In this document: one piece after another, positions 3,620 to 63,019 of the stretch
How the letters are laid out: every line of letters begins with the position of its first letter
Position numbering within the stretch: position 1 is the first letter of the stretch
Assembly: GCA_030646995.1 (NCBI GenBank)
Contig: JAUSKF010000001.1
Span: 5,700-69,699 of the forward strand
DNA length: 64,000 nucleotides
From: a bacterium
GTDB lineage: Bacteria > Patescibacteriota > Minisyncoccia > UBA6257 > WO2-44-18
Reading direction: 5' to 3'
Notes under the pieces: model-generated
Told to the model about the DNA's origin: nothing
Databases searched by the model: none
What the model saw: only the letters and a program-made list of their open reading frames with translations
Made by a program: the position numbers and the translations under genes

Positions 3620-4681
3620 CTAAATCGCGCGTTTTTTAAGAACTACGACAAGTGATGTCGAAACTAACATTAAGGCTCCCATCAGCATAAAAGTATTCCA
3701 AAGGGCGTCACTCTCTTCAGGGGGAATTCCGGCATTCGGAAGGCTAGGTGTCGGAACTGGAGCTACTACAGGGGCTGGAGCCGGAGCCACCACAGGGGCT
3801 ACCACTGGAGTTGGCGCGGGTGTCGGTGCGGGAGTTGGCGTTGGGGTTGGGGTCGGAGCAGGTGTTGGTGTCGGAGCTGGGGTTGGGGTCGGAGCAGGTG
3901 TCGGAGTTGGGGCCGGGGCTGGCGCTGGGGCAACCGGAACCGAAACAGTATTACCATCCATTGTAACTTGGGTTTGTGCTAACGCCCTACCATTCAATAC
4001 TGCGCCAGTTTGCATAATGACCTGCTTTGCGCTCAATATAGTTCCCTTGAATGTAGAAGTCGTTCCCAGAGTTGCACCAGTAGGACCGCCAACCTGCCAG
4101 AAGACATTCGAAGCTAGGGCACCGCCGGCGAGGACTACCTGCTGAGCAGAGGCGATGGTGAGATCACCGGAGATTTGGAATATCCAAACATCACTCGCGC
4201 TACCGGAAAGAGTAACGTTAGTCGGAATCGTAACATTGGTGCTCCATTTATAGAGTCCTGGGGCGATGGTTAAGCCACCGATATTCCCAGCGCCTAATTC
4301 AGTCGCGGTTGGACCAGTTCTTCCGGCGGCGTTGGTATATGCGGCTTCCATATCACTCACAGCCGTAGTCAAAGAAGTCGGACTGACTACTCTGCACGCA
4401 GGGCCAGCGGCATCAACTGTGTAAATAGTCCCGGTCACTTCCGGGCAGCCTAATCCGGTGATAGATGCGCCAGTAATTGGGCTGGTTCCCAAATTTCCGG
4501 TAATGGCAGATGTGGGGATATTAGTAATCCCTGTTTTTGACAGAATCACGAAATTTCCCGCCGTCAAAAGATCGACTGGCGCAGGGCCTGCCGCAGACGC
4601 CATAAACAATCCAGTAAGACCAAGCAGAGAAGAAACTACTGATGCGGCTATGATTGAACTTTTAGTAAACTTTTGGGTCAT
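3620..4681 (-). CDS. Cell-surface protein with an ice-binding-like DUF3494 domain, a Pro/Thr/Ala-rich linker and a C-terminal LPNAG sorting signal
   Basis: [36 protein letters not shown] matches the DUF3494/IBP N-terminal consensus. A long APAPTPTP linker follows. The C-terminus reads LPNAG, then a hydrophobic stretch, then KKRAI. Confidence 0.6.
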
Positions 4682-4882
4682 GTATTATATTTTTTATGTT
4701 AAGGTTTTTAATTTATTATCTCGTTTGAAAATCAGATATTATATTACTCTATTTACTTTTCCTTGAACTAGTTTAACTAGCTCGACCATAAGAAGTAGTA
4801 AATCAGCCTAATCTCTTCCTTATAGTTTACCCCCCCCCATCGACAAATTACTAATGTAGTCCCCTGTGCATAAGTCTAATCT

Positions 4883-19474: not shown

Positions 19475-20734
19475 TCATTCGACAGGAAGACCAGCCGGAG
19501 GCTCGCCCTTCTTAGCGCCAAGCCGACGTAGTAACGGCGCTTCAACCACGATACTCGGGAAGTGATAAATAGTAGCCAACTCTTCGATATTCAAAATCGA
19601 AGTCCGCCTTGGCCAGTACAAACGCTTAAAAGACTCCCACATCTTACGCTTCTTATACCAAAGTCGGGTTTGTTTGAAGAGTTTCACGTTGCCGCGGATT
19701 AAAGTCATTGTATCCACATTCGGCCGAAATCCATTCAGATTTTGAGTGCTGAACTGATGAAAGGTCGCCATCACCGAACCGATATGGGAACGGGTAAACT
19801 TCTCGCGCTTATCAATAAAAACGAACCGAACATTAGTTTCAAATCCGAGCTGGCTAATCTTTTTTTCAATCGCCTCCACCACGTCTTTTTCACCGCCAGT
19901 CATTGCTACTAATTTATTAGATTCTTCTTTTTTCACTTCTTCCGCCCAAACCGGAGGCCGCGCCGGAGCGTGAACGAAATTCATAAAAAATTCATGGACG
20001 ACGCCGGCAAAAGTTTTCGGCGTGGGTTTTTTCCGGCCCACTAGTTTATCTCGAAGCGCCTCCGCTTCTTTTTTCCAGCCGTTGCCGGTCGGACTCACGA
20101 AAATCTGAATAGCAATCATCTCATCGTTTTTCAGCTTAGACATTACTTCGGTAATAGCCGCAATCGGGTCCAACCGCCGCTCGGGCGCTATCTCTTCAAA
20201 ATATTCATAAGTTTTTATCGGGTAGGCATTCTCACGTATCAAATGATAATCAGTGCCCCAGATGTCGTAAGTTTTATTCGGCAGAGTGCGCGGAAAAATA
20301 TCCATATAATCAGGAACTTCGTGCACCTCCGCGTCGGGATATTGAGCGTAAACTGCTGATTCCACAATATTTTTATAACCATTGGGGGTGCGGATATAGA
20401 AATGAACCCCTCCAGCAAATCCAACCAACTCAAAAGATATCCAGTCTTCACGCAAATGCCCTTCCAAATAAATTTGAAACAAACGAAAATCAAAAGAATA
20501 GATTCCATAAACCGCAGAAAAAATCTGCTCCATAGCTTTGGGGGTTTTCTCAATACCGGCCGGGATTTTCACTTCCAGCACCACCCAATTCATTGTCTTC
20601 AGATAACTAACGAAGATGTAGTACATCCAAAGCTTCCAAAAAACGTAAAATAGGGCGACGGGAAGGATTGCCCACCAAGCAACGGCAATAACCGAAAAGA
20701 TACTATTTAAAATTCCTGTAAAAAATTCAGGCAC
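19475..20734 (-). CDS. Hypothetical membrane protein encoded directly upstream of the T4SS-like ATPase gene
   Basis: 419 aa; N-terminal TM helices then a large soluble domain; likely in an operon with the ATPase. Confidence 0.45.
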   Translation of the reverse strand: MPEFFTGILNSIFSVIAVAWWAILPVALFYVFWKLWMYYIFVSYLKTMNWVVLEVKIPAGIEKTPKAMEQIFSAVYGIYSFDFRLFQIYLEGHLREDWISFELVGFAGGVHFYIRTPNGYKNIVESAVYAQYPDAEVHEVPDYMDIFPRTLPNKTYDIWGTDYHLIRENAYPIKTYEYFEEIAPERRLDPIAAITEVMSKLKNDEMIAIQIFVSPTGNGWKKEAEALRDKLVGRKKPTPKTFAGVVHEFFMNFVHAPARPPVWAEEVKKEESNKLVAMTGGEKDVVEAIEKKISQLGFETNVRFVFIDKREKFTRSHIGSVMATFHQFSTQNLNGFRPNVDTMTLIRGNVKLFKQTRLWYKKRKMWESFKRLYWPRRTSILNIEELATIYHFPSIVVEAPLLRRLGAKKGEPPAGLPVE

Positions 20735-20759
20735 AAACTAATTATACCACTCTACTTAG

Positions 20760-20830
20760 TTTCTATATGTCTGGTACACGTACCATCCTACACATGCCCC
20801 TATAAGGGTTATGTGTGGGACACGTCCCGA
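20760..20830 (-). promoter_or_regulatory. Promoter region carrying motif A (TCTATATGTCTGGTACACGTA) and a half-site of palindromic motif B (GGTTATGTGTGGGACACGTCCC)
   Basis: Same motifs recur upstream of other genes at fixed distances (see findings). Confidence 0.4.
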
Positions 20831-24197: not shown

Positions 24198-24268
24198 GCC
24201 TCCATAGCTTAATGGTAAAGCAGCTGCCTTTTAAGCAGTTGACCAAGGTTCGATTCCTTGTGGGGGCA
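24198..24268 (+). tRNA. tRNA-Lys (anticodon UUU)
   Basis: Acceptor GCCUCCA/UGGGGGC, D-stem GCUU/AAGC, anticodon stem GCUGC/GCAGU with loop CUUUUAA, T-stem CAAGG/CCUUG with loop UUCGAUU. Confidence 0.8.
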
Positions 24269-24274
24269 CAAATT

Positions 24275-24305
24275 TTAAGACCGGCCATTAGGCCGGTTTT
24301 AAAAT
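24275..24305 (+). terminator. Intrinsic terminator after tRNA-Lys
   Basis: ACCGGCC-ATTA-GGCCGGT hairpin followed by TTTTAAAATTTTT. Confidence 0.5.
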
Positions 24306-24317
24306 TTTTGTCTTTAT

Positions 24318-24483
24318 GGAATCGAACAGCCGCACCCCGTATTGGAAGGCAGAGCACTACCCCGCGGGGTAGTGCTCGTCGGAAACCAGAAGGTGTCCGC
24401 TCCGCCAGCTGGCGGAGGGGGTCGGGGTGCGGCGAAAGTGTTCGAGCCGAGTACTCGAGGCCCTGTTCCTTGTGGGGGCACAA
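24318..24483 (+). repeat. tRNA-3'-associated structured repeat element, copy 1, ending in an 18 bp direct repeat of the tRNA-Lys 3' end
   Basis: About 85% identical to 46269-46408 and homologous to 38798-38944; direct repeat TTCCTTGTGGGGGCACAA at 24254-24271 and 24466-24483. Confidence 0.55.
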
Positions 24484-38383: not shown

Positions 38384-38574
38384 GTCAAGACCAGAATCCG
38401 AGTATTGAACGCCACTGCACGAAAGAGAATCCTTGGGACCACGCCCCATTCGATCCCACCAAGGAAACCATCATTCATAACGACGCCGAAGAGACCTGCC
38501 CTGAATACGACGGAAATCTGGTTCCCTATAGATGCCCGCATTGCGGACATGAATTCACGGTAGATATGAGCTAG
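38380..38574 (+). CDS. Small zinc-ribbon protein (hypothetical)
   Basis: 64 aa starting at an ATG overlapping the gpt stop (ATGA); CPEYDGNLVPYRCPHCGHEF Cys pairs. Confidence 0.4.
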   Translation: MSQDQNPSIERHCTKENPWDHAPFDPTKETIIHNDAEETCPEYDGNLVPYRCPHCGHEFTVDMS

Positions 38575-38575
38575 T

Positions 38576-38626
38576 CCCCTATTTCCACATATTCTCCGCA
38601 GCGATGCGGGGATTTTTTATTTGAAA
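38576..38626 (+). terminator. Repeated terminator module (CCCCTATTTCCACAT + CTCCGCAGCGATGCGGGG hairpin + T-run)
   Basis: Near-identical 50 nt copy at 54033-54084, immediately after another plus-strand gene. Confidence 0.55.
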
Positions 38627-38663: not shown

Positions 38664-38753
38664 GGAAGCGTGGCAGAGTGGTCTAACGCGCCGCACTTGA
38701 AATGCGGTAAGCCCGCAAGGGCTTCGAAGGTTCGAATCCTTCCGCTTCCGCCA
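38664..38753 (+). tRNA. tRNA-Ser (anticodon UGA), CCA encoded
   Basis: Type II tRNA: acceptor GGAAGCG/CGCUUCC, anticodon stem CCGCA/UGCGG with loop CUUGAAA, long variable arm, T-loop UUCGAAU. Confidence 0.8.
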
Positions 38754-38797
38754 AAATTGAGAACATCCCAACCGGGGTGTTTTTAATTTTGCTGAAG

Positions 38798-38944
38798 GAT
38801 TCGAACCGAGCGTCACCCCGTCCAGGAAGGATTCGGAAACCGAAGGTGTCCGAATGGGGGTCGGGGTGACGCGAATGGTTCGGCGAGGTTTGGGGCCGTC
38901 CGGCACAAACCGAAGCGTAAATCCAATTTCCGCTTCCGCCAAAA
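38798..38944 (+). repeat. tRNA-3'-associated structured repeat element, copy 3, ending in a 17 bp direct repeat of the tRNA-Ser 3' end
   Basis: Shares GGATTCGAAC...CACCCCG...GGAAGGATTCGGAAACC-GAAGGTGTCCGA...GGGGTCGGGGTG with the other two copies; direct repeat TTCCGCTTCCGCCAAAA at 38740-38756 and 38928-38944. Confidence 0.5.
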
Positions 38945-42427: not shown

Positions 42428-42460
42428 CGCCCGTCCGCCAGTTGGCGGATGGGCGTTTTG
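42428..42460 (+). terminator. Intrinsic terminator
   Basis: CGCCCGTCCGCCAGTTGGCGGATGGGCG hairpin plus TTTTG. Confidence 0.6.
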
Positions 42461-42494: not shown

Positions 42495-42584
42495 GGAGGG
42501 TTGGCAGAGTGGTCTAACGCGCCGCACTCGAAATGCGGTTGGGAAGAAATTCCCTCGGAGGTTCGAATCCTCCACCCTCCGCCA
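42495..42584 (+). tRNA. tRNA-Ser (anticodon CGA), CCA encoded
   Basis: Type II tRNA: acceptor GGAGGGU/ACCCUCC, loop CUCGAAA, long variable arm, T-loop UUCGAAU. Confidence 0.8.
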
Positions 42585-42657
42585 GGGCCTATAGTTCAGT
42601 GGTAGAACGCCTCGTTTGCAACGAGGAGGGGGGAGTTCGATTCTCCCTAGGTCCACC
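42585..42657 (+). tRNA. tRNA-Ala (anticodon UGC)
   Basis: Acceptor GGGCCUA/UAGGUCC (G3:U70), anticodon stem CCUCG/CGAGG with loop UUUGCAA, T-loop UUCGAUU. Confidence 0.8.
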
Positions 42658-45077: not shown

Positions 45078-45174
45078 AATAAAAAAGCCTTGCGGCTCTA
45101 AGTTTATAGATTGTACTACACTTGACTTTAAAAGTCAAATGTTGGACTATCTCTGAGCGGGCAGGGGGGGGCTG

Positions 45175-45245
45175 AGCGGGTAAGGGGAATCGAACCCCTG
45201 TCTTTAGCTTGGAAAGCTAAGGTAATGCCATTATACGATACCCGC
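45175..45245 (-). tRNA. tRNA-Gly (anticodon UCC)
   Basis: Acceptor GCGGGUA/UACCCGC, anticodon stem UUAGC/GCUAA with loop UUUCCAA, T-loop UUCGAUU. A 9 nt duplicate of the 3' end (CTGAGCGGG) lies at 45153-45161. Confidence 0.75.
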
Positions 45246-45351
45246 AGTCGTCAAATCCTGTTTTCTACAATATCATACCAGCGTCTTGATTAAAGTAAAG
45301 AAATAGATAAAGTTATAGTAGCTTGCCCCTCATAGGAGGCGGGTCTGTCTT

Positions 45352-45954
45352 ATGGATAAGATTAAAACCAAGCATATTGTGACTGTAATCATGGCCACGG
45401 CACTGGTCTTAGTTTTGCGTTATGTGGTTTTTCCGGCTAAGTTTCTGCCTGGAGAATTTTCGGAGGCTCGCATCAAAGGATCCAACGTGGCGCAAAAAAT
45501 TGTGGAAATTTCCCGCGCCAATCTTGCCCTGCTGGACACAGTCGCGAAATATGACCGGGCCAGTGACCACACCGAAGCTTTGATTGCCATCTCTGCAGCG
45601 ATTATTCAAAACCAAGACAATCAAGTGGAAGCAATTCGGCTCTCCGAGCAATTAACTACAATGGCGGAGCAGATGCAAAGGATTAGACCATTGAGGGCCA
45701 AAGAAATTGCCACCGAAGCAGTGGCTTCAGAGGTTGCTTTGGTAAGCAGGCTTATCTACTACAATAGTTATTTAGCGCAACTTTTTGAAACCTTGAAAGT
45801 AAAGTTTGAAAAGCCCTGGGTTGTCTATTTAGATGGCCAGGTTAATGACTTAATCAACAAAATTAACGATGAAGCTCAAGCCATCAATGAATTGAATAAA
45901 AAATTCGTTTCTTCGATGGGCGAGTTAGACGTAATTTTTAATATCGGGGAGTAG
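45352..45954 (+). CDS. Hypothetical membrane-anchored protein
   Basis: 200 aa; AGGAGG RBS; one N-terminal TM helix. Confidence 0.4.
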   Translation: MDKIKTKHIVTVIMATALVLVLRYVVFPAKFLPGEFSEARIKGSNVAQKIVEISRANLALLDTVAKYDRASDHTEALIAISAAIIQNQDNQVEAIRLSEQLTTMAEQMQRIRPLRAKEIATEAVASEVALVSRLIYYNSYLAQLFETLKVKFEKPWVVYLDGQVNDLINKINDEAQAINELNKKFVSSMGELDVIFNIGE

Positions 45955-46051
45955 TACCTGCCTGCCCTCCATGGGCGGGTGAACCGGCAGGCAGGTACCG
46001 GCCCGATTCGCCGAAGCTTGAACGAAGCGAGTAGTGCACGTGTTTTGAAAA

Positions 46052-46122
46052 CGGGGCGTAGTATAACGGTAGTACTCAGACTTTGGGAGTCTGTAGCCTG
46101 GGTTCAATTCCCAGCGCCCCGA
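46052..46122 (+). tRNA. tRNA-Pro (anticodon UGG)
   Basis: C1:G72 acceptor (CGGGGCG/CGCCCCG), anticodon stem CAGAC/GUCUG with loop UUUGGGA, T-loop UUCAAUU. Confidence 0.75.
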
Positions 46123-46147
46123 TAAATATCGAAGTAATTTTCAAATT

Positions 46148-46219
46148 GCCCCCGTAGCTCAATGGTCAGAGCGCACGGTTTCTACCCGTTAGATGTGGGT
46201 TCGATTCCTACCGGGGGCA
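46148..46219 (+). tRNA. tRNA-Arg (anticodon UCU)
   Basis: Acceptor GCCCCCG/CGGGGGC, loop UUUCUAC, T-stem GUGGG/CCUAC with loop UUCGAUU. Confidence 0.75.
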
Positions 46220-46225
46220 CAATTT

Positions 46226-46252
46226 AAAACCAGGACTTAAGTCCTGGTTTTA
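46226..46252 (+). terminator. Intrinsic terminator
   Basis: AACCAGGACTTAAGTCCTGGTT hairpin plus TTTAAATT. Confidence 0.5.
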
Positions 46253-46268
46253 AATTCATGCTTTCCGT

Positions 46269-46408
46269 AGGAATCGAACAGCCGCACCCCGTGTTGGAAG
46301 GATTCGGAAACCAGAAGGTGTCCGATCCGCCAACTGGCGGAGGGGGTCGGGGTGCGGCGAAGGTGTTCGAGGTTGAGCAAAGCGAAACCCCTGTTCCTAC
46401 CGGGGGCA
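46269..46408 (+). repeat. tRNA-3'-associated structured repeat element, copy 2, ending in a 15 bp direct repeat of the tRNA-Arg 3' end. A third degenerate repeat lies at 46598-46613.
   Basis: Direct repeat TTCCTACCGGGGGCA at 46205-46219, 46394-46408 and 46598-46612. Internal CCGCACCCCG...CGGGGTGCGG long-range pairing and a TCCGCCAACTGGCGGA hairpin. Confidence 0.55.
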
Positions 46409-46701
46409 TATTGCTCAAACAGTTCTCTCGCATCACCAGAGCTCTTTTTGGCCAGCGCCAAAAAGGCTCTTTTCTCTCGGCAGTTCAATTTTGGTTAAAG
46501 AGATATTATAACCAAAAACCCGCTTGAACTGCCTCCGAGATATGCTGCTCAAAAACTATTTTCGCGGTTGGACGAAAGCGGGGCGACTTGTAGCCGATTC
46601 CTACCGGGGGCACTAATAAAAAACTGCGGCCTAGGCCGCAGTTTTTTACATAACCTAAGTGAATTCTTCCTCGGCATTCGCCTCGGACATTTCCGCTAGA
46701 G

Positions 46702-47463
46702 TTACTTACTCGGAAGTGAAATGGCGTTGGACTGTAACGTAACAGCCGTTTGCGCCAATGCTCTTCCGTTTAACGTTGCGCCGGTTATCATAGCAACGTT
46801 TGTTTTAGCCAGAAGATTTCCCTCAAAGTGCGAACCCGCTCCAAGGGTCACAGCACCGGCAACCTGCCAAAAAATATTCTTGGTCTGGGCGCCACCGCTT
46901 AAGAGCATCCGCTTGCCAGCGGCCATATCAAGAGTTCCCGCTATCTGGAAGATCCAGACCGCATTCGCGTCGCCTTGGGCGTCGAGCATAAGATCTGTCG
47001 GTATCGTCACAGCGGAATCCCATGTGTAAGTACCAGGGAGAAGGGTTTGACCGGTGACAGTTCCGGCCCCTACATTCAAGAAAGAACCAACTCCTGCTGG
47101 TCGCCCAGCAACATCAAGGTATACGGCTTCCATGTCGCTTACGGCCTGAGTCAGCAGTGTTGCATCTGTTGTTCTGCATGCAGGGCCAGTAGCGTCAACT
47201 GTGTATATCATCCCAGTCACTTCTACACAATCTAATCCGGTAATAGCCGCGCCCGTAATCGGACTTGTTCCGATATTGCCAGTAATCGCAGACGTAGGAA
47301 CATCAGTAATTCCGGTTTTTGATAGAATCACGAAATTACCCGCCGACAAAAGGTCAACTGAAGTCGCCGGGACAGCTGCAAACAGAGTGGTTACCCCAGC
47401 TAGACCGAGTGCCAAGGAGAAGACAGCCAAAGTTACTATTGAATTCTTATTAAACTTTTTCAT
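46702..47463 (-). CDS. DUF3494 (ice-binding-like) secreted protein, paralog of 3620..4681 without linker or sorting signal
   Basis: N-terminal signal/TM then [37 protein letters not shown], almost identical to the other copy. Confidence 0.6.
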   Translation of the reverse strand: MKKFNKNSIVTLAVFSLALGLAGVTTLFAAVPATSVDLLSAGNFVILSKTGITDVPTSAITGNIGTSPITGAAITGLDCVEVTGMIYTVDATGPACRTTDATLLTQAVSDMEAVYLDVAGRPAGVGSFLNVGAGTVTGQTLLPGTYTWDSAVTIPTDLMLDAQGDANAVWIFQIAGTLDMAAGKRMLLSGGAQTKNIFWQVAGAVTLGAGSHFEGNLLAKTNVAMITGATLNGRALAQTAVTLQSNAISLPSK

Positions 47464-47609: not shown

Positions 47610-49136
47610 CTATCGTGCCCTCTTTATTGGCAAAGAGACGCTGAAAATACAGCCCTTACTTTTATTTTTTACACTGACACTACCGCCATGGGCCTCGGCG
47701 ACCCATTTTACAATTGATAATCCTAGCCCGATGCTGTTTCCGTCAGAATTATGAGACTTATCTGCTCTATAAAATCGTTCAAACACATGAGGTAGGTCTT
47801 CTTTGGATATGCCGATTCCATCATCAGCCACGCTTATTGTAACGAATCCCTTGGACTGCTCAGCGAGAATTTCTGTATGACCGTTCTTGTTGCCATAGAG
47901 GATAGAATTTTTTATAAGATTGGTGAGCATTTTTTCCAGATACACCTTATCCCCTAAAATAATAAGGCTCGGTATCTTCCTGGCAATTATGGAGATATTT
48001 TTTTTATAAGTAATCGCCTTACATCTTCCTATGATGACCGCGATAAGAGACCTAAGATTTACTTTGTCATATACAATTCTATTTTCTAACTCCCCCTTTC
48101 TGGAAGTTATCAGGGTGAGATCCGAAAGAATACCGGAGAGATGCTTTATTTCATAGTTTATAGCCAAAAAAGCGCTCCTCAATGACTTTGGGTTTTTTGA
48201 CTTATCTAGCATAGCCAAATCCACATTGCCTTGGATTATTGCCAAAGGGGTACGGAGTTCATGGGTGGCATCCGCAATTGATGCTACTTTCAATCTTTCT
48301 TCTTCGAGGAGTCTGGCTGTCTCTTTCACCAGTTCCAGTTTCTTGCGTTCAGTTATGTCCCGTACGTTACATTGAATAACGCGCGTCTCACCGGCCATGT
48401 AAGAATTGCTCACAAACTCAACCTCAATAGACTGTCCGGATTTTGTTTCTAGTGGTAAATCCTCATAACGCAAATGACCTTCTTTTTGTAAAACTTTAAA
48501 AGCCGTCCGAGATGCTTTTGTATTTTTAAACGCCCCAACTTCCCATAATTTTTTATTTAAGAATTCACTTTTAGAATAGCCGAGTAATTTCTCTAAAAAA
48601 GGGTTTACGTCTGTTATTTGACCGGTTTGAGAATTAAGGATAAGCACTCCATCGTGGGCGGTCTCAAAAAGTCGCCGGTATCTGATTTCCGACTCTTTTA
48701 ACTTAGTTTTTATTTTATTTTGTTGCTTGGCTTTAAGCCGGAGTGTTTCTGCTGTCACAGCCAGCTTTTGTCTGACACTTTCCTTTTCCTTGGCAGTTAC
48801 CGCAAGCTGCTTGGCGGTCACCGCCAGCTTACGCCTGATACTTTCCTTTTCTGCGGCCGTCGCAGCAAGTTTACTCCTGATACTTTCCTTTTCTCGAGCA
48901 ATCGCGGCAAGCTGTTTGGCGGTTACGGCCAATTTGTCTCTGATACTTTCCTTCTCTTTAGCGATTAGGGCAAGCTGTTTGGCTTTGAGTCGGAGTGTTT
49001 CTGCTGTCACAGCCAGCTTTTGTCTGACACTTTCCTTTTCCTTGGCAGTTACCGCAAGCTGCTTGGCGGTCACCGCCAGCTTACGCCGAACATCTTCCTT
49101 TTCCTTAGCGGTTATGGCGAGTTGTTTTTTTTTCAT
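47610..49136 (-). CDS. Sensor histidine kinase (cytoplasmic; N-terminal tandem coiled-coil repeats, PAS, HisKA, HATPase)
   Basis: H-box ATHELRTPL, then N, G1 (DDGIGI) and G2 (GLGLSIV) boxes; N-terminal repeats of KLAVTAKQLAVTAKEKESVRQ. Confidence 0.8.
   Translation of the reverse strand: MKKKQLAITAKEKEDVRRKLAVTAKQLAVTAKEKESVRQKLAVTAETLRLKAKQLALIAKEKESIRDKLAVTAKQLAAIAREKESIRSKLAATAAEKESIRRKLAVTAKQLAVTAKEKESVRQKLAVTAETLRLKAKQQNKIKTKLKESEIRYRRLFETAHDGVLILNSQTGQITDVNPFLEKLLGYSKSEFLNKKLWEVGAFKNTKASRTAFKVLQKEGHLRYEDLPLETKSGQSIEVEFVSNSYMAGETRVIQCNVRDITERKKLELVKETARLLEEERLKVASIADATHELRTPLAIIQGNVDLAMLDKSKNPKSLRSAFLAINYEIKHLSGILSDLTLITSRKGELENRIVYDKVNLRSLIAVIIGRCKAITYKKNISIIARKIPSLIILGDKVYLEKMLTNLIKNSILYGNKNGHTEILAEQSKGFVTISVADDGIGISKEDLPHVFERFYRADKSHNSDGNSIGLGLSIVKWVAEAHGGSVSVKNKSKGCIFSVSLPIKRAR
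48727..49085. repeat. Intragenic direct DNA repeat (two copies of about 105 bp, near identical) in the histidine-kinase coiled-coil region
   Basis: GGCTTTAAGCCGGAGTGTTTCTGCTGTCACAGCCAGCTTTTGTCTGACACTTTCC...CACCGCCAGCTTACGCC occurs at 48727-48833 and 48979-49085. Confidence 0.65.
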
Positions 49137-53833: not shown

Positions 53834-54028
53834 TTGAACAAGAAATACCTCCGGCAGAAGATACTTCGCCTCGTGATGAGTTGGCCGGAAAGAAATGAGT
53901 TCCTGACAGTATCAGAGATAGCAAAAAGGCTGAAAATTCCCAAAGAAGGCGCGGCTAAAATTATCTTTGAGTTATTCGGCAAAAAGAAGCTGGAAATCTA
54001 CGGGCAGCTAGTTATAAAACCTCGCTAA
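53834..54028 (+). CDS. Small winged-helix DNA-binding protein (putative regulator; TTG start)
   Basis: 64 aa; GAGGAGG RBS; LTVSEIAKRLKIPKEGAAKIIFEL HTH-like. Confidence 0.4.
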   Translation: MNKKYLRQKILRLVMSWPERNEFLTVSEIAKRLKIPKEGAAKIIFELFGKKKLEIYGQLVIKPR

Positions 54029-54030
54029 GC

Positions 54031-54300
54031 CCCCTATTCCCACATGATCTCCGCAGCGATGCGGAGATTTTTTATTTAGTACGAGGCTTTGAGGACGCAG
54101 ATGTAGACTCTACTTCCAGTCCGAGAAACGAAGTAATAAATAATAAAATCCCGCATCCCAGAGGGTTGTGGTTAAAATTCTTTATTTCTATGTCGTCGAA
54201 CAATAGGCATAGAGTCTATGCCTCATTATTCTCCTCCTCGAAATAAAGAATTTTTCCTCACAACGCTGCTGAAGCTTATGTGGGAATAGGGGGCAACACG
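54031..54300. repeat. About 270 bp long-hairpin MITE-like element with perfect 17 bp terminal inverted repeats
   Basis: GCCCCCTATTCCCACAT pairs with ATGTGGGAATAGGGGGC; inner arms GGTTGTGGTTAAAATTCTTTATTTC/GAAATAAAGAATTTTTCCTCACAAC. The left end contains the repeated terminator module. Confidence 0.5.
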
Positions 54301-54328
54301 GGGCTTTTTATATAGTGAGCTTGCCGAA

Positions 54329-55114: not shown

Positions 55115-55813
55115 CTATTTTGACGAAAGATGCTTCGGTACAATTTTAAATGCCAATATCAACGCAAAAATAATCGCAAAGCCACACATAATGGAGGCAA
55201 GGGCGTTTCGCGCATCAGGAGAAATCACGAAAATTACCCCCATCGGCAAAATGAAAGAAAGATAGCCGGCTATAAACCAAAAAAGTATCTTCCTAGTTAT
55301 GGTGGGTTTGTGAATGGCGGATATTTTTTCTAGAGCTTCCCAAATTCCCAGAATTAGAAAACCAAAATAATAAAAGCCGTAAAAGCCATATAGGGCCTGC
55401 GATGAATTAAAGATTACGTAATTACCACCACAAAAAGCGCCCGTGATTGCCTTGGGCACAAACAGAAAATAAGCGGCATACAAAATCGCAGCCACGTATC
55501 CCAATTTCAGGAAATGAGTCTTGTGGCTTAATTGTGATACCAGATAAAGACCGACTAGCGGCAATAAGGTGATCGCCACAAACCCTACACGTGACCACAT
55601 CAGAGCATGCGGACTGCCGACGCAAATCAGATATTCCGCCAGCTGAAATGTGGCCAGAAGCGCTAAAAGCAAAGCGGCCGTCCTGCCGAATTTCGTCATT
55701 CTGTATCTCGCAAAAATATAAAGCGCAAGAATAATCTCAATAGCAAAAGTGGCCACCATCACAAAAGGCGAGAAGCAGAAGAAAGTAGATTTTTGCCTGA
55801 AAAACCTGAACAT
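55115..55813 (-). CDS. Hypothetical polytopic membrane protein
   Basis: Seven or eight TM helices; motif A directly upstream. Confidence 0.4.
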   Translation of the reverse strand: MFRFFRQKSTFFCFSPFVMVATFAIEIILALYIFARYRMTKFGRTAALLLALLATFQLAEYLICVGSPHALMWSRVGFVAITLLPLVGLYLVSQLSHKTHFLKLGYVAAILYAAYFLFVPKAITGAFCGGNYVIFNSSQALYGFYGFYYFGFLILGIWEALEKISAIHKPTITRKILFWFIAGYLSFILPMGVIFVISPDARNALASIMCGFAIIFALILAFKIVPKHLSSK

Positions 55814-55841
55814 TAATTTAATATATACCATTCTACTTAAT

Positions 55842-55865
55842 TTCTATATGTCTGGTACACATAAC
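55842..55865 (-). promoter_or_regulatory. Promoter-proximal motif A (TTCTATATGTCTGGTACACATAAC)
   Basis: Also at 20763-20782 and 57551-57574, each 30-50 nt upstream of a minus-strand start codon. Confidence 0.4.
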
Positions 55866-56067
55866 AAAGCGAATCGACATTTCTTCGTAAGGAACCCTAC
55901 CGGCAGGCAGGTATTTTTTCTAAAGCGCAGGGAGTAGTTTCGAGGAACATGCCGGAGGCGATTTTGATTGGTTCGTTTGTTAATACAAACGAAAAATCGC
56001 CAAGGGAGAGGCGAAATTTTTCGCTGGAAAAAATTTACGCCGTTTCCGAGGGGCTATTCCCGGAGCC

Positions 56068-56969: not shown

Positions 56970-57524
56970 CTAAAGCTTTACCGCTGGAGCGTTCTCGGCG
57001 CCGGCTGCAGCCTCAAAATAATTCCTTTGAGAAAATCCGAAAATGCCCGCCACTAAACTGCTGGGAAAAGTTTTAATGGAAACATTCAAAACGCGCACGC
57101 CATCGTTAAACCTTTTCCTTTCAACGCTGACCCTATTTTCTGTTCCTTCAAGTTGAACCATCAAAGTCTGCACATTAGCCGAAGATTGGAGTTGAGGATA
57201 ATTTTCCATAATAGCGAGCAGTCTGCCGAAAGCGCTCTCCACTCCGGTAGCGGCGGCGGCTTTGTCGTTGATAGTAGCGGCGCCGGCATAACGAGTTCTG
57301 GCATCAGCCAATGCAGTAAAAATAGTCTGCTCCTGCTTCATCACCCCTTTCACCGACTCAACGAGGTTAGGAATCAAATCAAGTCTCCGCTGATATTGTG
57401 TTTCAACTTGCGCCCACTGGTTATCTACCGCCTCCCCTTTCGCCACCAAACCGTTGTAGGTAGACATTACGTAAACCGCCACAACCAATACTACGCCTGC
57501 GACTATCAATAGTGTTTTTTTCAT
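56970..57524 (-). CDS. lemA: LemA family protein
   Basis: N-terminal TM; LemA signature YNGLVAKGEAVDNQWAQVETQYQRR. Confidence 0.7.
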   Translation of the reverse strand: MKKTLLIVAGVVLVVAVYVMSTYNGLVAKGEAVDNQWAQVETQYQRRLDLIPNLVESVKGVMKQEQTIFTALADARTRYAGAATINDKAAAATGVESAFGRLLAIMENYPQLQSSANVQTLMVQLEGTENRVSVERKRFNDGVRVLNVSIKTFPSSLVAGIFGFSQRNYFEAAAGAENAPAVKL

Positions 57525-57550
57525 AAAGTTAGTATACCATCCCATTTTAG

Positions 57551-57574
57551 TTATATAAGTCTGGTACACGTAAC
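57551..57574 (-). promoter_or_regulatory. Promoter-proximal motif A (TTATATAAGTCTGGTACACGTAAC)
   Basis: 30-53 nt upstream of the lemA start codon. Confidence 0.4.
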
Positions 57575-57744
57575 AAACTTTTCTGCTTACACTGAGCTTG
57601 CCGAAGTGCGGGCGGTGTCGGTCTAGAACCGACCCGATGTGAGCATTATAGGGCTTTCTTGGGGTTCATTCCAGTAGGCCGTTTGAGGTGTCTCGGTCGG
57701 GGGTCTTTATTCGGGAAATGAGACAAATGGGACACTGTAGGAGG

Positions 57745-58851
57745 TTACCGTTCGCTAATCACAACGCCAACCCTCTCAACCGCCTGGACTGTATTACCAG
57801 ATTGGTCATACCAACTCAATCCTCTAGGCGCTGGTATTAAAATTAGAGTCCTCGGACGAGCTGTGAGTGCCTTCAGGACGACGCATAAAATAAACTTATC
57901 TCGATTCTTCTTTGAGTATGCATATTCGTTCGGAGTAAGTTCAATATTGATGCGGTCGCCCTTCGAACCTTTGACCTCGATATGAAGCTGGCGGCCACTC
58001 ACCGATGTAGCTCGAACATCATAGCCAATCTTTTTTAGACTCACGTCCTCAACTAAATAGCCTCTATGCCTATAGGCCTCCATAACGCACTCCATTGCCC
58101 GCTTTTCAATTTCCATTCTCTCTTTGGTGTCCTGAATCCAACCGCCACGCCCCGCACTAAAGGCTCCTTTGCGCGACTTCGCCTGGCGGCTTGAGAATTC
58201 CCCGGCCTTAATAACCTTTAGAACACGCTCGTTGGTTAATTCGTTGCCGTACCAAAAGGGGCTTTGGCCGGGTTTTCCTTGTCGAGTGTTACCACTAATC
58301 GGTAACGCCGGGCGCTCGCCGGGCGCCAGCAACTTCGAGGAAGCCACTAGAGACTCGACGGTAAATTCACAAACATCGCCGCTATTTGTCGTCCGGTTCT
58401 TTGCCGGGGATCCTTCAGGTTTCTGCCGCTTGGCCCATACGCGAGCCCCATTAGACCATCCGACGATGACTCTCCCGCCCAAATATCGATGAGTAGCAAA
58501 CCATATAACGGTCACCCCGTCCAAATACATAGCGTCTAAACCGGCGCCAAGCCTACTCAGGTCGGGGTTCTTGCCGCCTGGCGCGTGACCGAAATATTTT
58601 GTGCCATAAGGTTTAAAATTAAACTGAGTATGATCGTTGAGAGGCTCATCTCTCGTGTACTTAAATTTTCCATACGGCATGTCATCATCCGAAGCACCTT
58701 GGTAACGCTCCATCCAGGGTATATTAATATATAAAATAGGAGCTTCTTTCATTAGTACATTGTAACGTATAATAGTGCCCACCTCATGCCACTTAGTCAC
58801 CTCGATATCTCCTAACTGGCGGGGCGGTATCAGCTTAGACCAATGGGACAC
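57745..58851 (-). CDS. Hypothetical protein with a C-terminal PD-(D/E)xK (restriction-endonuclease-like, DUF3883-like) domain
   Basis: C-terminal GYDV...(D)...IEVKGSKG fits the D-x(n)-E-x-K nuclease motif; N-terminal 230 aa unknown; GTG start. Confidence 0.35.
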   Translation of the reverse strand: MSHWSKLIPPRQLGDIEVTKWHEVGTIIRYNVLMKEAPILYINIPWMERYQGASDDDMPYGKFKYTRDEPLNDHTQFNFKPYGTKYFGHAPGGKNPDLSRLGAGLDAMYLDGVTVIWFATHRYLGGRVIVGWSNGARVWAKRQKPEGSPAKNRTTNSGDVCEFTVESLVASSKLLAPGERPALPISGNTRQGKPGQSPFWYGNELTNERVLKVIKAGEFSSRQAKSRKGAFSAGRGGWIQDTKERMEIEKRAMECVMEAYRHRGYLVEDVSLKKIGYDVRATSVSGRQLHIEVKGSKGDRINIELTPNEYAYSKKNRDKFILCVVLKALTARPRTLILIPAPRGLSWYDQSGNTVQAVERVGVVISER

Positions 58852-58920
58852 AGCTTAGGAGAACGACTCGCGTCTCACTCCTCCAGCTTCTTGGGACGTT
58901 AATTTAAGTTTATACTGTAG

Positions 58921-59670
58921 GTGTTATTTAGTAAATTTATGCGTAAAAAAACACAAAGTGAAAAATTTGCTGACTTGCTATATAGCAATCCGGAATTCCA
59001 AAAGGCGGTCATAATCATACGCCGCCGCTTCGGCATACCCGACCCTGGATTTATTAAAAAAGATGATCGGGCAGAGTTTATAAAAAAATTCAGCAAGGAG
59101 TCCCTAAGTAAGGCATCGGATCCCTTGCTTATCAGTAGGGTTCGCAAATTACGCCAGGACTACGAAGCCGGAAAAATTTCTCGCCAGAAATATCTTTTCA
59201 CTGTCAGAGAGCTTGAGTGGGTAGTGCCGCAATTTCGTATAGATCGAGAAATAAAAAATCTCAGAGCGGAATTTAAGATATCGAACCATTGGGATTTTGT
59301 GCTACTCAGCCACATCATTTCCGGTGAGAAACATTGGTCGCAAAGCTGCGTCCCAGGAATTTTTCTTATCGGAGATGGACCTGAGGCGGAAATTAAAATC
59401 ACAATTGATGCTAACGCAACACAGAAGGAATTATTGGATATCTGGCCGACGATACAAGAATTCCAAAAAAGACTGCCGAACTATCGCGGCGGGAAATTGA
59501 GAAAGTTAAAAAATTTAGAACGGGACTCTAGAATAGTTGAAATGCGCGCCAAGGGTATGAAGGATAGAGAAATCACCGAAGAAATAAACCGATTGTATAA
59601 AGGCACGCCTGTAAGCTATGAATATGTACCGAAAATATTGAAACGCTATAAGGTCCGTACCGGACACTAA
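58921..59670 (+). CDS. Hypothetical protein (phage-like block)
   Basis: 249 aa; the basic C-terminus may be a HTH; no catalytic motif. Confidence 0.3.
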   Translation: MLFSKFMRKKTQSEKFADLLYSNPEFQKAVIIIRRRFGIPDPGFIKKDDRAEFIKKFSKESLSKASDPLLISRVRKLRQDYEAGKISRQKYLFTVRELEWVVPQFRIDREIKNLRAEFKISNHWDFVLLSHIISGEKHWSQSCVPGIFLIGDGPEAEIKITIDANATQKELLDIWPTIQEFQKRLPNYRGGKLRKLKNLERDSRIVEMRAKGMKDREITEEINRLYKGTPVSYEYVPKILKRYKVRTGH

Positions 59671-59821
59671 GGGATTCTTCCTAGCGCCTTATACGAAATA
59701 ATTCCCCGCCCCCAAGCTGTAGTTATGAGACTACGGTTTTATTTTGTCGTCTCTGGTCGAGGTCGACGACCGAATTTACAAGAAGATCGAATGAAAACTT
59801 AAAATAAAAAATAATAAAAAC

Positions 59822-61153
59822 ATGGATAAACCAATAAAACAAAAATTAAACATTCAATACGTTCCGGTGAGTGATTTGCGGCCGGCGTCGTACAATCCGC
59901 GCAAGCATTCCCAAGAACAGGCAGGTCAGCTAAAAGAAAGCATTAAGAAATTTGGACTAGTGGACCCATTACTGGTTAATTCTGCGCCCAGCCGAAAAGG
60001 AATTGTAATCGGCGGCCACTTCCGACTCGAGGTCGTTAAAGAAATGGGCTTCAAAGAAGTGCCGGTCGTCTACATCAATGTCCCCGACATCGAAAAGGAA
60101 AAAGAACTTTGCATCCGGTTAAATTTGAACACCGGCGAGTTCGACTGGGATCTATTGGCCGACTTCGAGGAGGTATTTCTGAAAGACGTTGGCTTCTCCA
60201 GCGAAGACTTGGACGATATCTTCGGCATAGACGATAATCCGGAAATATTTGATCTCCAAAAGGAGTTAAAGAAACTCGATATCACTAAGATTCTGATTAA
60301 GAAAGGAGATGTCTGGCAGTTGGGCACACACCGCCTTATGTGCGGCGACTCAACCACTGCCTCCGACTTCTCGAAGCTCATGGGCGGCGATAAGGCGTCG
60401 CTCTGCCTGACAGACCCACCGTATCGCCTGGACTACCTCAAAGGTAAGAAGAAAAACGGCAAAGCGACTGAAGGATTCGGGTACAAGCGTGACCGTAAAT
60501 ATTTAGAAACCGATTCAATTCCGGAGGACTTCACAGAAAAATGGATGGCGAATATCGCCAAAGCAGCCAAAGAGGATTTCCATATCATTGTATACGAAAA
60601 TTGGAAAAATATCCGACTTATTTGGGGCGAGATGGAGAAATATTGGAAAGTTCGCAATATGATTGTCTGGCATTTACCAAACCGGATGCAAGGTTTTGCG
60701 GCGAAGTATAGGTTCTTCAATAAGCACGACATTGCGATGGTTGGATCCTCGGGCAAATCCGAAATTCGCTTGAACTCCGAAGGCGAACTATTGGATAACG
60801 AATATCAGACGGCGCTTTATGCCACTGCCGGCAAGCCGCATTGGGAAGGCTACGAGAAAGGAAAGAAAATCTGCCCGACGGATTTTATTGAGTACAAATC
60901 GGCGGACGCAAAAAGTTCCGGACAGGGAATAATTTTCGGAACAAAGCCAGTAGAGATCCTGATTCCGTACATGAAAGTTTTAACCAAGCGCGGAGATCTG
61001 GTAGTTGAGCCGTTTGGAGGTAGTGGATCAACCTTGATCACGGCTGAGAAAATGAAGCGCCGTTGTTTCTTGATGGAAAAATCGCCAGTCTACGCCGAAG
61101 TGATAAAACATCGCTGGGAGAAATTAACTGGCCTTAAAGCCAAAAAATTATGA
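59822..61153 (+). CDS. ParB-like nuclease domain fused to a beta-class N6-adenine/N4-cytosine DNA methyltransferase
   Basis: N-terminal ParB box (VPVSDLRPASYNPRK...GGHFRLE); methyltransferase motif IV DPPY (LCLTDPPYRLDY) precedes motif I FGGSGST. Confidence 0.7.
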   Translation: MDKPIKQKLNIQYVPVSDLRPASYNPRKHSQEQAGQLKESIKKFGLVDPLLVNSAPSRKGIVIGGHFRLEVVKEMGFKEVPVVYINVPDIEKEKELCIRLNLNTGEFDWDLLADFEEVFLKDVGFSSEDLDDIFGIDDNPEIFDLQKELKKLDITKILIKKGDVWQLGTHRLMCGDSTTASDFSKLMGGDKASLCLTDPPYRLDYLKGKKKNGKATEGFGYKRDRKYLETDSIPEDFTEKWMANIAKAAKEDFHIIVYENWKNIRLIWGEMEKYWKVRNMIVWHLPNRMQGFAAKYRFFNKHDIAMVGSSGKSEIRLNSEGELLDNEYQTALYATAGKPHWEGYEKGKKICPTDFIEYKSADAKSSGQGIIFGTKPVEILIPYMKVLTKRGDLVVEPFGGSGSTLITAEKMKRRCFLMEKSPVYAEVIKHRWEKLTGLKAKKL

Positions 61154-61566
61154 AACGGGCAACTAAGGCGCTGCTTCTAGAGCAGCTGAAGAAAACTCCG
61201 ATTGTTCAGATCGCTTGCGAGAAGGCTGGCGTGGGTCGGGCAACGTACTATCGCTGGCGCAAGGAAGATCCAGAATTCTCTAAGATGGCGGACGAAGCCA
61301 TCTTAGAGGGCAGCTTTCTCGTTAATGATATGGCCGAGACCCAGCTCATGTCCGCCATTAGAGACCGGAACCTAACTGCGATTATCTTTTGGCTTAAGCA
61401 CCATCACTCCCAATACACCAACCGCTTGGAAATTAGCGGCCAGATTACTCATTTACGTAAAGAGCTCACCGAAGAAGAAAAACAGATGGTCGAAAAGGCA
61501 TTACGCTTGGCAATGCCGCAGGAAAACGAAGAGCTAAATCAAAACAATGGAGAACCAACTACCTAA
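61150..61566 (+). CDS. Phage terminase small subunit (HTH)
   Basis: 138 aa; HTH IACEKAGVGRATYYRWRKEDPEF; overlaps and directly precedes the terminase large subunit. Confidence 0.5.
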   Translation: MKRATKALLLEQLKKTPIVQIACEKAGVGRATYYRWRKEDPEFSKMADEAILEGSFLVNDMAETQLMSAIRDRNLTAIIFWLKHHHSQYTNRLEISGQITHLRKELTEEEKQMVEKALRLAMPQENEELNQNNGEPTT

Positions 61567-63019
61567 TAAACCCGAGGAAATCATCCAGAGAATGATTAAC
61601 GATCCGAATTTCCGGCTAGAACTAGTTCGGGATAGCCATTACTGGTTTATGCACTTTTATTTTCCTCATTATGTCACCTATCCGACCGCAGATTTCCAAA
61701 AGGAAATATTCCAGCTTACTGAATCCTCAGATAGAACGGTGGTGATCACGGCCTTCCGTGGCTCGGCGAAATCAACAATCTGTACCCTCTCATATGCTAT
61801 TTGGGCAATTCTCGGAAAGCAGGGAAAGAAGTTCGTAATAATGACCAGCCAAACTCAGCGCCAAGCTCGTCAGCATCTGATGAACTTGAAACGGGAGCTA
61901 GAGAGCAACCCCTTACTTTTGCGAGATTTAGGCCCCTTTCATGAGGAGCAAGATGAGTGGGGTGGATACTCTTTGGTGATCACTAAATATGGGGCAAGGA
62001 TTACCGCGGCATCCTCCGAGCAAAGTATAAGAGGACTGCGCCACATGAACTATCGGCCAGATCTGATAATTGCCGACGATATCGAGGACTTACAATCAAC
62101 GAGAACTAAAGAAGCGCGCGACAAGACTTACGACTGGCTGTTGGGCGACGTAATCCCAGCCGGTGATCAAAATACCAAGTTGATTATCGTGGGAAATCTT
62201 CTTCACGAGGATTCAGTAATGATGCGGCTGAAGTCGAGTATTGAGGAAGGGAAAATCGATGGAGTTTTCCGGGCGTACCCGATAATCGGTGAGGGCAATA
62301 AAATCCTTTGGCCTGGAAAATACCCGACGCTGGAAGCAGTGGAAAATGAAAAACGCAAAACAGGAAACGAGTCGGCTTGGAATCGGGAATACTTGTTACG
62401 GATCGTCAGCGATTCAGAACGAGTCGTTCATCCCGAATGGATTCAGCATTATAAAGAGCTGCCCGATAAAGATCATTTGCGCTATACCGCAACAGGAGTT
62501 GATCTGGCTATATCGCTAAAAGAAACCGCTGACCGCACAGCAATGGTTTCGGCAAATATTTATGGCTATGGCGAGGATCTTAAAATCTACATCCTTCCCA
62601 ATCCCATCAATGAGCGGCTGACATTTCCGCAGACGGTCGACCGGATAAAACTTTTGTCCAAGGTTCTTGGAGAGGGAGCGCAATCGCATATGTATATAGA
62701 AGAGGTTAGCTACCAGCGCTCGTTGATCGAACAACTTAACCGCGAGGGATACCACGCAGAAGGAGTTAAACTGCACGGCCAAGACAAACGCTCTCGGCTG
62801 GCTTTGACGACCGCCATGATTCAAAACGGTCAGATTGTTTTTCCCGAAAAAGGAGCCGAGGATTTAATTCAACAGCTGACTGGTTTTGGGGTGGAAAGAT
62901 TCGATGATCTTGCCGACGCTTTTTCTTTGCTCGTTCTAAAAACCACAACAGAAACTCATGCAGAGCCAAACATAACTTGGATAGACCTCGGGCCGCCGCG
63001 CGGGTGGCAGAGTTTTTAG
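61547..63019 (+). CDS. Phage terminase large subunit (Terminase_6/PBSX XtmB-like)
   Basis: N-terminal ATPase with Walker A AFRGSAKST and Walker B LIIADDIED; C-terminal RNase H-like nuclease domain (ATGVDLAIS...D...D); 490 aa. Confidence 0.75.
   Translation: MENQLPNKPEEIIQRMINDPNFRLELVRDSHYWFMHFYFPHYVTYPTADFQKEIFQLTESSDRTVVITAFRGSAKSTICTLSYAIWAILGKQGKKFVIMTSQTQRQARQHLMNLKRELESNPLLLRDLGPFHEEQDEWGGYSLVITKYGARITAASSEQSIRGLRHMNYRPDLIIADDIEDLQSTRTKEARDKTYDWLLGDVIPAGDQNTKLIIVGNLLHEDSVMMRLKSSIEEGKIDGVFRAYPIIGEGNKILWPGKYPTLEAVENEKRKTGNESAWNREYLLRIVSDSERVVHPEWIQHYKELPDKDHLRYTATGVDLAISLKETADRTAMVSANIYGYGEDLKIYILPNPINERLTFPQTVDRIKLLSKVLGEGAQSHMYIEEVSYQRSLIEQLNREGYHAEGVKLHGQDKRSRLALTTAMIQNGQIVFPEKGAEDLIQQLTGFGVERFDDLADAFSLLVLKTTTETHAEPNITWIDLGPPRGWQSF

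Follow-up and report, generated by a model that had tools for sequence, protein, structure and literature searches.

The genomes of CPR/Patescibacteria are tiny and leave scant space for repeats. How does the 3' end of a single tRNA gene come to stand three times in succession in such a genome, and what are the sequences that separate the copies? These questions are raised by a locus in a 64-kb stretch of cellular CPR/Patescibacteria DNA (hereafter the window, to which all coordinates refer unless a contig is named), which has ~46% GC, contains 12 tRNAs and encodes TypA, LepA, RF, ThyA/DHFR, ComEC, a sortase and an AsnS/LysS-type aaRS. The proteins nearest to its TypA are annotated as Patescibacteria, and the TypA proteins of its close relatives are 88–92% identical. 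In the window and in these relatives, the neighbourhood consists of tRNA-Gly, an ORF, tRNA-Pro and tRNA-Arg(UCU). A sequence-only reading had described the locus as a tandem att-like array, in which three copies of the tRNA 3' end bracket two different inserts, and had proposed repeated, independent integration or excision events at this one tRNA. The phenomenon exceeds the scale of that reading, since it extends across the genome and concerns many tRNAs: a conserved structured module of ~150 nt occurs on up to a quarter of the tRNA genes examined, with turnover between near-identical strains. If mobile, the module would be a very compact site-specific element without a gene of its own, and a natural system for recombination at tRNA 3' ends; as a functional RNA, it would point to a new step of tRNA biology in a huge, mostly uncultured bacterial branch. 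The modules are usable as strain-level markers, and breakage of assemblies is a practical consequence of their presence.

Two structured modules behind tRNA-Arg(UCU)

The sequence TTCCTACCGGGGGCA occurs exactly three times in the window, at 46205–46219, 46394–46408 and 46598–46612 (+), as had been read from the sequence, with no extra match at ≤2 mismatches and a chance expectation of 0.04; three matches were reached in none of 100 shuffles. The first copy lies within an intact tRNA-Arg(UCU) gene (46148–46220, +; called by ARAGORN, and 69.7 bits with the Rfam tRNA model), whose last 15 nt it represents, and comprises the end of the T-loop, the 3' strand of the T-stem, the 3' strand of the acceptor and the discriminator. 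The second and third copies were located by pattern search, the second also by folding. Copies 1 and 3 have 18 nt in common (CGATTCCTACCGGGGGCA) and are 89% identical over 28 nt. Between the copies lie two inserts of 174 and 189 nt, each a structured module that is closed by a copy of the last 15 bases of tRNA-Arg. Inspection of ORFs in both inserts gave only spurious, overlapping frames, and a protein product was therefore rejected.

The first insert, module 1, opens with a perfect 18-bp palindrome with AT-rich arms (46221–46256, +; inverted repeat I2), a terminator-like left hairpin whose orthologue in contig L065 carries a compensatory change. At sites without the module, such as an abutting Ser/Ala tRNA pair, this hairpin is missing too, and thus it belongs to the module. 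It is followed by the 5' strand of helix P1 (46259–46279, +; identified by sequence reading and folding), which consists of TGCTTTCCGTAGGAA and then the T-loop complement TCGAAC. Compared with a perfect complement of the tRNA-Arg 3' end, this strand carries three C-to-U changes and one G-to-C transversion, the latter producing a mismatch or bulge, and its cognate duplex of −14.2 kcal/mol ranks first of 17 and is the strongest among the 18 units tested. The conserved core (46281–46358, +), supported by a covariance model (CM) match at 46267–46369 and by covariation, contains helix P3 (46281–46291 paired with 46348–46358), hairpin P5 (46304–46325) and a genome-specific extra hairpin, TCCGCCAACTGGCGGA (46326–46341), which is common only to the copy behind tRNA-Lys in the same window. 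The tail (46359–46393, +; from the fold) contains the T-loop-like GTTCGA (46365–46370), a small hairpin, P6, and CCCCTG, and its type is kept across the copies of the family. Repeat copy 2 provides the 3' strand of P1 and forms the border to the second insert. Promoter prediction on module 1 gave no promoter. As a separate observation, the small hairpin TCCGCCARCYGGCGGA is present inside the Arg and Lys elements of the window (46326–46341 and 24401–24416), within P6 of an Ala element of contig L060 (about 5925–5945), and as the terminator after a 57-aa zinc-ribbon ORF at 42430–42453; judged by its sequence contexts, it appears to be another insertable mini-hairpin.

The second insert, module 2 (46409–46597, +), is another conserved structured sequence, recognised by alignment with homologues that follow tRNA-Arg in L003, L056–L058 and L060. 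The inverted repeats that had been described in this interval are present (46479–46488 with 46524–46533, and 46444–46452 with 46457–46465), and a hairpin at 46439–46471 and a long hairpin at 46474–46539 are predicted; in an alignment of four sequences, 11 of the 57 predicted pairs show a compensatory change. Like module 1, module 2 has an opening hairpin and a closing copy of the tRNA 3' end, and the T-arm-like GTAGCCGATTCCTAC (46590–46604) spans its end and the start of copy 3. In relatives, the sequence that precedes the tRNA-end copy of module 2 resembles the module 1 tail (...GCGAAACCCTTG followed by TTCC). The possibility that module 2 is a diverged module 1 was rejected, as nhmmer and the covariance model find only three cores in the window and the tail motif alone, in relatives, is alike. 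Beyond copy 3, a perfect 16-bp palindrome with A- and T-runs (46617–46648, +; inverted repeat I3) matches the strong terminator that had been placed at the end of the array. In relatives, the last repeat copy is likewise followed by a hairpin at this position, and the palindrome is probably the original terminator of tRNA-Arg. A GC-rich palindrome, CCTGCCTGCCGGCAGGCAGG, was also observed at 45954–45998 of the window, at 4716–4740 and 4812–4832 of L003, where it splits repeat copy 3 and sits within module 2, and at 1228–1250 of L060; from these positions it would be a recurrent small insertion that behaves like a REP-like mini-element.

The module 1 family: distribution and structure

The conserved structured element that had been assigned to the first interval has homologous cores at 24315–24444 and 38794–38883 of the same window. 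The former lies in a family member behind tRNA-Lys(UUU) (tRNA at 24198–24269, member at 24270–24481, +), which comprises a hairpin, the element and the tRNA-end copy TTCCTTGTGGGGGCAC at 24466–24481; the latter lies in a member behind tRNA-Ser(UGA) (tRNA at 38664–38753, member at 38754–38944, +), with the copy TTCCGCTTCCGCCAAAA at 38928–38944. According to nhmmer and the covariance model, the window thus holds three family copies, behind tRNA-Lys, tRNA-Ser and tRNA-Arg, so that 3 of its 12 tRNAs carry module 1. The same searches over fetched loci gave ~40 copies on CPR/Patescibacteria contigs, nearly all of them placed immediately past the 3' end of a same-strand tRNA. The core pattern was scanned over 185,579 species genomes, and a metagenome scan added 16 loci. 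True matches are almost solely in MAGs labelled CPR, with one exception (L008); other matches outside CPR were rejected, being mostly gyrB or chance matches in GC-rich genomes. A same-strand tRNA ends 81–119 nt upstream in 28 of 32 core matches, and at least 22 of these 28 tRNA-linked cores have an exact 15–23 nt copy of the 3' end of their own tRNA 31–94 nt past the core. The linked tRNAs are those for Arg, Lys, Leu, His, Ser, Ala, Val, Asp, Ile, Met and Gly (at least 11 amino-acid specificities), and the family stands behind at least 17 different anticodons in units of 166–249 nt. The distal copy is 13–23 nt long, runs from the T-loop past the discriminator by at least one base, and in most copies is exactly identical to the adjacent tRNA.

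The family is previously undescribed. At gathering thresholds, a search of Rfam 15 passes only tRNAs, and at E≤10 only spurious matches of hairpin or miRNA type are added; for L043, Rfam at E≤0.1 gave nothing useful, and a search of the full-text literature found no description of the family. The element has no match in IMG/VR, INPHARED or PLSDB, and a phage or plasmid origin was rejected on this ground. The exceptional L008, a contig binned as Gammaproteobacteria, carries at 5972–6074 a stand-alone core composed of P3–P5 only, with neither P1/P2 nor a tRNA copy, which abuts a convergent tRNA-Met at its 3' end. The core may also occur independently, as an RNA module in its own right, or the binning of the contig may be wrong.

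Read 5' to 3' on the tRNA strand, the unit begins directly past the tRNA with an AT-armed GC hairpin, followed by a strand complementary, with many G–U pairs, to the 3' strands of the tRNA acceptor and T-stem, and by a near-invariant T-loop complement, GGAATCGAAC(C). In the core, P3 surrounds junctions rich in purines, P4 is an optional hairpin, and P5 is a hairpin whose loop is GAA or AGAA; past it come a T-loop-like GTTCGA(G), or GGTTCGG in some copies, then P6 and a short tail, and the tRNA-end copy closes the unit. The strands GGAATCGAAC and GTTCGA are both conserved and inverted relative to each other, and the outer parts vary with the tRNA. Helices were scored with an anchor-based parser and a CM alignment of 34 copies, in which 98.9% of cells are paired and 10 of 19 pairs show double changes; this level of core pairing was reached in 0 of 500 shuffles, and slid controls gave 31–49%. 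In P2, P3 and P5, G–U pairs number 28 against 4 A–C pairs, and this excess places the structure on the tRNA-sense strand, as RNA or single-stranded DNA. Compensatory, strand-specific changes of the kind that mark a structured RNA are thus found in module 1, and in module 2 on four sequences only. The 5' strand is shown to be specific for its own tRNA, cognate duplexes having a mean of −6.6 kcal/mol and non-cognate ones of −3.6 kcal/mol (permutation p = 5e-5). Two other identities for the element were rejected. A minus-strand tRNA, tmRNA or intron-bearing tRNA is contradicted by an unpaired T-stem on that strand, by ARAGORN, which calls nothing there, and by the G–U bias towards the plus strand; a T-loop intron of tRNA-Arg is contradicted by the upstream tRNA, which is complete without splicing.

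Occupied sites, empty sites and mosaic copies

The comparison of syntenic loci that the sequence-only reading had suggested was carried out, and the array does vary among relatives. Behind tRNA-Arg(UCU) there is nothing in L061, L063 and L064, module 1 only in L065, module 2 only in L056, L057, L058 and L060, and both modules in the window; L003 has both modules behind tRNA-Arg(UCG). The difference is always a single module together with a single tRNA-end copy. Since all four occur in close relatives, modules 1 and 2 have been gained or lost independently, which upholds the proposal of repeated events at one tRNA. The term att-like fares less well: the direct repeats of the tRNA 3' end are as described, but the likeness is one of analogy only, as no integrase is associated and the units are ~190 nt long without an ORF.

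A second comparison is offered by tRNA-Ser(CGA) and tRNA-Ala(UGC), which abut at 42584/42585 (pair at 42495–42657, +) and in the window serve as unoccupied reference sites. Both are occupied in L050, only the Ser site is occupied in L059, and only the Ala site in L060. The Ser junctions are clean, reading ...TTCCTCCTCCGCA/CC/Ala when empty and ...TTCCTCCTCCGCA/module/TTCCTCCTCCGCA/TC/Ala when filled, and what separates the two forms is exactly one unit and a repeat of 13 nt. At tRNA-Gly(UCC), an element is present in L056 and L061 and missing in L057. The contigs L056 and L057 are 96–98% identical, yet polymorphic for this element; as the entire intergenic region differs between them, the difference may reflect import of an allele rather than insertion.

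Unusual copies indicate what travels with the module. An orphan element in L004, behind an unrelated tRNA-like end, retains a Ser-type 3' copy, and in L022 the distal copy has diverged from the tRNA and still pairs perfectly with the 5' strand of its own unit; the distal tRNA-end copy is therefore part of the module. Remnants of a further unit, consisting of a tail and a degenerate copy, lie past the element in L044, L047 and L056, so that stacking at one tRNA is recurrent. The Arg module of the window has a mosaic composition: hairpin and 5' strand share 86% identity with the L065 orthologue, and the core shares ~96% with the Lys core of the window, along with a 16-nt derived hairpin found in no other copy. 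Thus, the ends follow the tRNA, and cores are exchanged among copies within a genome. Clustering of cores gives one Ser-only lineage, which is tRNA-specific across genomes and Ser isoacceptors, and two promiscuous lineages that are 91–99% identical across many tRNAs. Core identity is 99% between Met and Asp copies and 93% between Lys and Gly copies, with ends that are fully cognate.

Exact-protein look-ups for strain variants of the Arg locus returned a 1-kb contig in one case and no record in the other. The contig L001 (Logan SRR13727527) is the sole public contig carrying the ORF that neighbours the array; it corresponds to 45173–46250 and stops inside the left hairpin of the Arg module 1. 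Its end is an example which suggests that tRNA-linked repeats break short-read assemblies.

Possible origins of the array

We lean, though not strongly, towards the reading that the array is a stack of two different small, non-autonomous, ORF-less modules that recombine at the 3' ends of tRNA genes by Campbell-type exchange, module 1 being read through. In module 1, the internal strand and the distal copy form P1, a helix resembling the stack of acceptor and T-stem, and we infer that gain would be a Campbell-type exchange between the module-borne copy of a tRNA end and the tRNA gene. The exchange could be catalysed by a recombinase acting in trans, or could proceed from a donor allele after DNA uptake and homologous recombination (the competence gene comEC is encoded in the window). 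Gain would leave the tRNA intact, put the newest module beside it and regenerate the target, and hence permit stacking; loss would occur by the reverse exchange or by replication slippage between the direct repeats. Transcription of module 1 would probably start at the tRNA promoter and continue past the tRNA, the product being trimmed at the tRNA-like end of the module, though the left hairpin, being terminator-like, would restrict such transcription; the core would be under selection and exchanged among the copies of one genome. This model accounts for the intact tRNA, the hairpin that travels with the module, the position of the newest unit by the tRNA, the stacking, and the foreign copy in orphans. 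Near-identical cores on many tRNA types count against it, because Campbell exchange needs the right tRNA end beforehand. Gene conversion of cores reconciles the two only by assumption, and the model alone leaves unexplained the new tRNA specificities and the near-exclusive C-to-U changes of the 5' strand. In addition, none of the copies has a recombinase, transposase or reverse transcriptase gene beside it, the scan of 20 window ORFs found none either, no circular or free module was observed, and no autonomous, transposase-bearing relative was seen in loci of 8–20 kb.

The cognate P1 strands raise another thought, about which we are doubtful: module 1 may be a tRNA-targeting RNA element that inserts in an RNA-directed manner or, alternatively, a functional tRNA-trailer RNA family of CPR. 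For such an element, the 5' strand would bind one particular tRNA at its 3' end, either as a guide or as a primer-binding site, the tRNA-mimicking terminus would bring about processing by RNase P, RNase Z and the CCA-adding enzyme, and insertion would be tRNA-primed or guide-defined. RNA-directed insertion would leave both P1 strands cognate to the new tRNA and the core nearly identical. True transposition, with the target duplication made anew, would likewise place hairpin, 5' strand, core and tail as a unit behind a tRNA and duplicate the last 13–23 nt of that tRNA, either through staggered cuts or through target- or tRNA-primed copying, in the manner of a SINE or of a retrovirus whose primer-binding site is recopied from the tRNA; a trans-acting casposase or Cas1-like DNA integrase, making long target duplications, is a further route. 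This is unlikely in our view, despite repeats that vary from 13 to 23 nt and mostly match the adjacent tRNA exactly, cores 92–99% identical on different tRNAs with both strands' ends cognate, a 5' strand whose complementarity to the tRNA runs from the 3' end into the T-loop, as in a primer-binding site, and an RNA-like structure folding on the tRNA-sense strand. The L004 orphan keeps a foreign, Ser-type copy and its new flank is not duplicated, and the L022 copy is unlike its tRNA and matches its own 5' strand. As for a SINE-like element, the repeat length is variable, while the orphan and diverged copies indicate a copy borne by the element. Mosaicism means that cores are exchanged apart from ends, so that fresh insertion is unneeded to explain similar cores, and a scan of 20 window ORFs found no reverse transcriptase, casposase or transposase nearby.

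The modules may also be immobile. They would then be ancient, functional 3'-trailer RNAs of CPR tRNA genes, for example tRNA-like minihelices that RNase P and RNase Z process, and would be inherited vertically, lost time and again by slippage between the direct repeats and homogenised within a genome by gene conversion. This too we judge improbable: patchy occupancy at 96–98% identity and four states at one tRNA would demand very many parallel losses, even if direct repeats ease precise loss, and only 3 of 12 window tRNAs carry a module. Strong purifying selection with covariation across distant CPR lineages, the Ser-linked lineage that is tRNA-specific across genomes and isoacceptors, a tail type that tracks the T-loop type, and the orthology of the left portions of the Arg modules in the window and L065 all speak for trailer RNAs, and have to be set against orphan copies that lie apart from tRNAs, traces of a second unit in tandem, and two unrelated modules stacked at one tRNA. 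It is highly improbable, finally, that the inserts are decayed integrase-borne islands or prophages at tRNA-Arg, whose attL and attR were left behind by internal deletion, and of the rivals this is the only one effectively excluded. Direct repeats from the T-loop to the tRNA 3' end are as in att sites of the T-loop class, and the window does hold a prophage-like island (terminase, ParB-methylase and NOV_C nuclease, next to a tRNA-like 3' fragment at 57612–57740), but independent deletions would not converge on ~40 copies with the same 166–249 nt architecture, a covarying core and at least 17 anticodons. The inserts contain neither an integrase fragment nor an ORF, and IMG/VR, INPHARED and PLSDB hold no matches.

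Small site-specific insertion elements at tRNA genes are the kind of system closest to the array, and it belongs to none of the known families. Integrative elements and prophages at tRNA genes (attL/attR, T-loop class) resemble it in their direct repeats of a tRNA segment, intact tRNA, tandem accretion and strain variation; tRNA-3'-segment repeats occur here in at least 22 other units, and presence and absence both leave the tRNA intact. The array differs from them in its units of 166–249 nt, its occurrence on at least 17 anticodons, its covarying body, and the lack of cargo genes and of an integrase or other recombinase beside the repeats (inserts and 20 window ORFs scanned). Integron attC cassettes, and CTXphi or IMEX at dif, also have imperfect inverted strands that fold into a stem mimicking the target duplex, a feature present in module 1 according to its fold and duplex energies; they are non-autonomous, use a host or trans recombinase, regenerate the target and place the newest unit by the attachment site, as is proposed for the array. 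Unlike them, the modules have neither GTTRRRY core sites nor a dif-like sequence (ATCGAAC and GTTCGAG break the R/L box consensus RYYYAAC ... GTTRRRY at the fourth position), their repeats are tRNA-specific and 13–23 nt long, and their 'cargo' is an RNA-like core.

MITEs, REP/REPIN, Rickettsia palindromic elements and IS200/IS605-derived PATEs are similarly multi-copy, 100–250 nt long, hairpin-rich, ORF-less and variable among strains, but the modules are strictly specific for tRNA 3' ends, fixed in orientation, flanked by long target-derived repeats and marked by the compensatory pattern of a functional RNA. Instead of the short fixed-length target duplication of a MITE, they have repeats of 13–23 nt that are always a tRNA 3' end; they share hairpins with IS200/IS605-type PATEs and REPs, but every unit is flanked by long direct repeats. 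The mascRNA-type 3' ends, tRNA punctuation and RNase P minihelix/EGS substrates share with module 1 a helix of acceptor, T-stem 3' strand and discriminator downstream of a strongly transcribed tRNA; module 1 differs in having no T-loop hairpin and in a G–U-rich 5' strand that is not the tRNA's own. The omega-RNAs of TnpB/IscB, in turn, have a conserved scaffold of ~130 nt and then ~16 nt equal to the adjacent target, as module 1 does, but here there is no TnpB/IscB gene and no HEARO or omega match in Rfam, the putative guide is paired internally, and the target is intact.

Several further features of the window were observed. A non-coding stretch of ~130 nt at 57612–57740 (−), with a homologue at 990–1130 of L004, ends in a T-arm and acceptor 3' strand (GGGTCGGTTCTAGACCGACACCGCCCGCA); no tRNA or tmRNA was called in it, and Rfam at E≤1 gave nothing useful. 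It adjoins genes at 57745–63019 that encode a NOV_C nuclease, a ParB-methylase and the large subunit of a terminase, and in L004 the homologue is followed by an orphan structured element; from its sequence and position it looks like the attR-type scar left by a prophage-like island. An AT-rich repeat of 54 nt, TATACCA..TCTGGTACAC, is found upstream of genes at 20732–20785, 55813–55866 and 57522–57575, and may be a common promoter or operator motif. A further small repeat family, at 38573–38622, 54028–54077 and 54273–54315, consists of a 50-nt repeat (90% identical) with a terminator-like hairpin at its end and an inverted partner 220 nt off. Secreted Ice_binding-like (PF11999) paralogues are encoded at 3620–4681 and 46702–47463 (DNA 80% identical over 188 nt), the latter directly flanking the tRNA-Arg array; this gene and the two-component operon of the histidine kinase at 47610–49136 (−) are missing at the matching position of L057. 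The kinase has an N-terminal coiled-coil repeat array, KLAVTAKQLAVTAKEKESVRQ, visible in the DNA as repeats whose starts are 105 and 147 nt apart.
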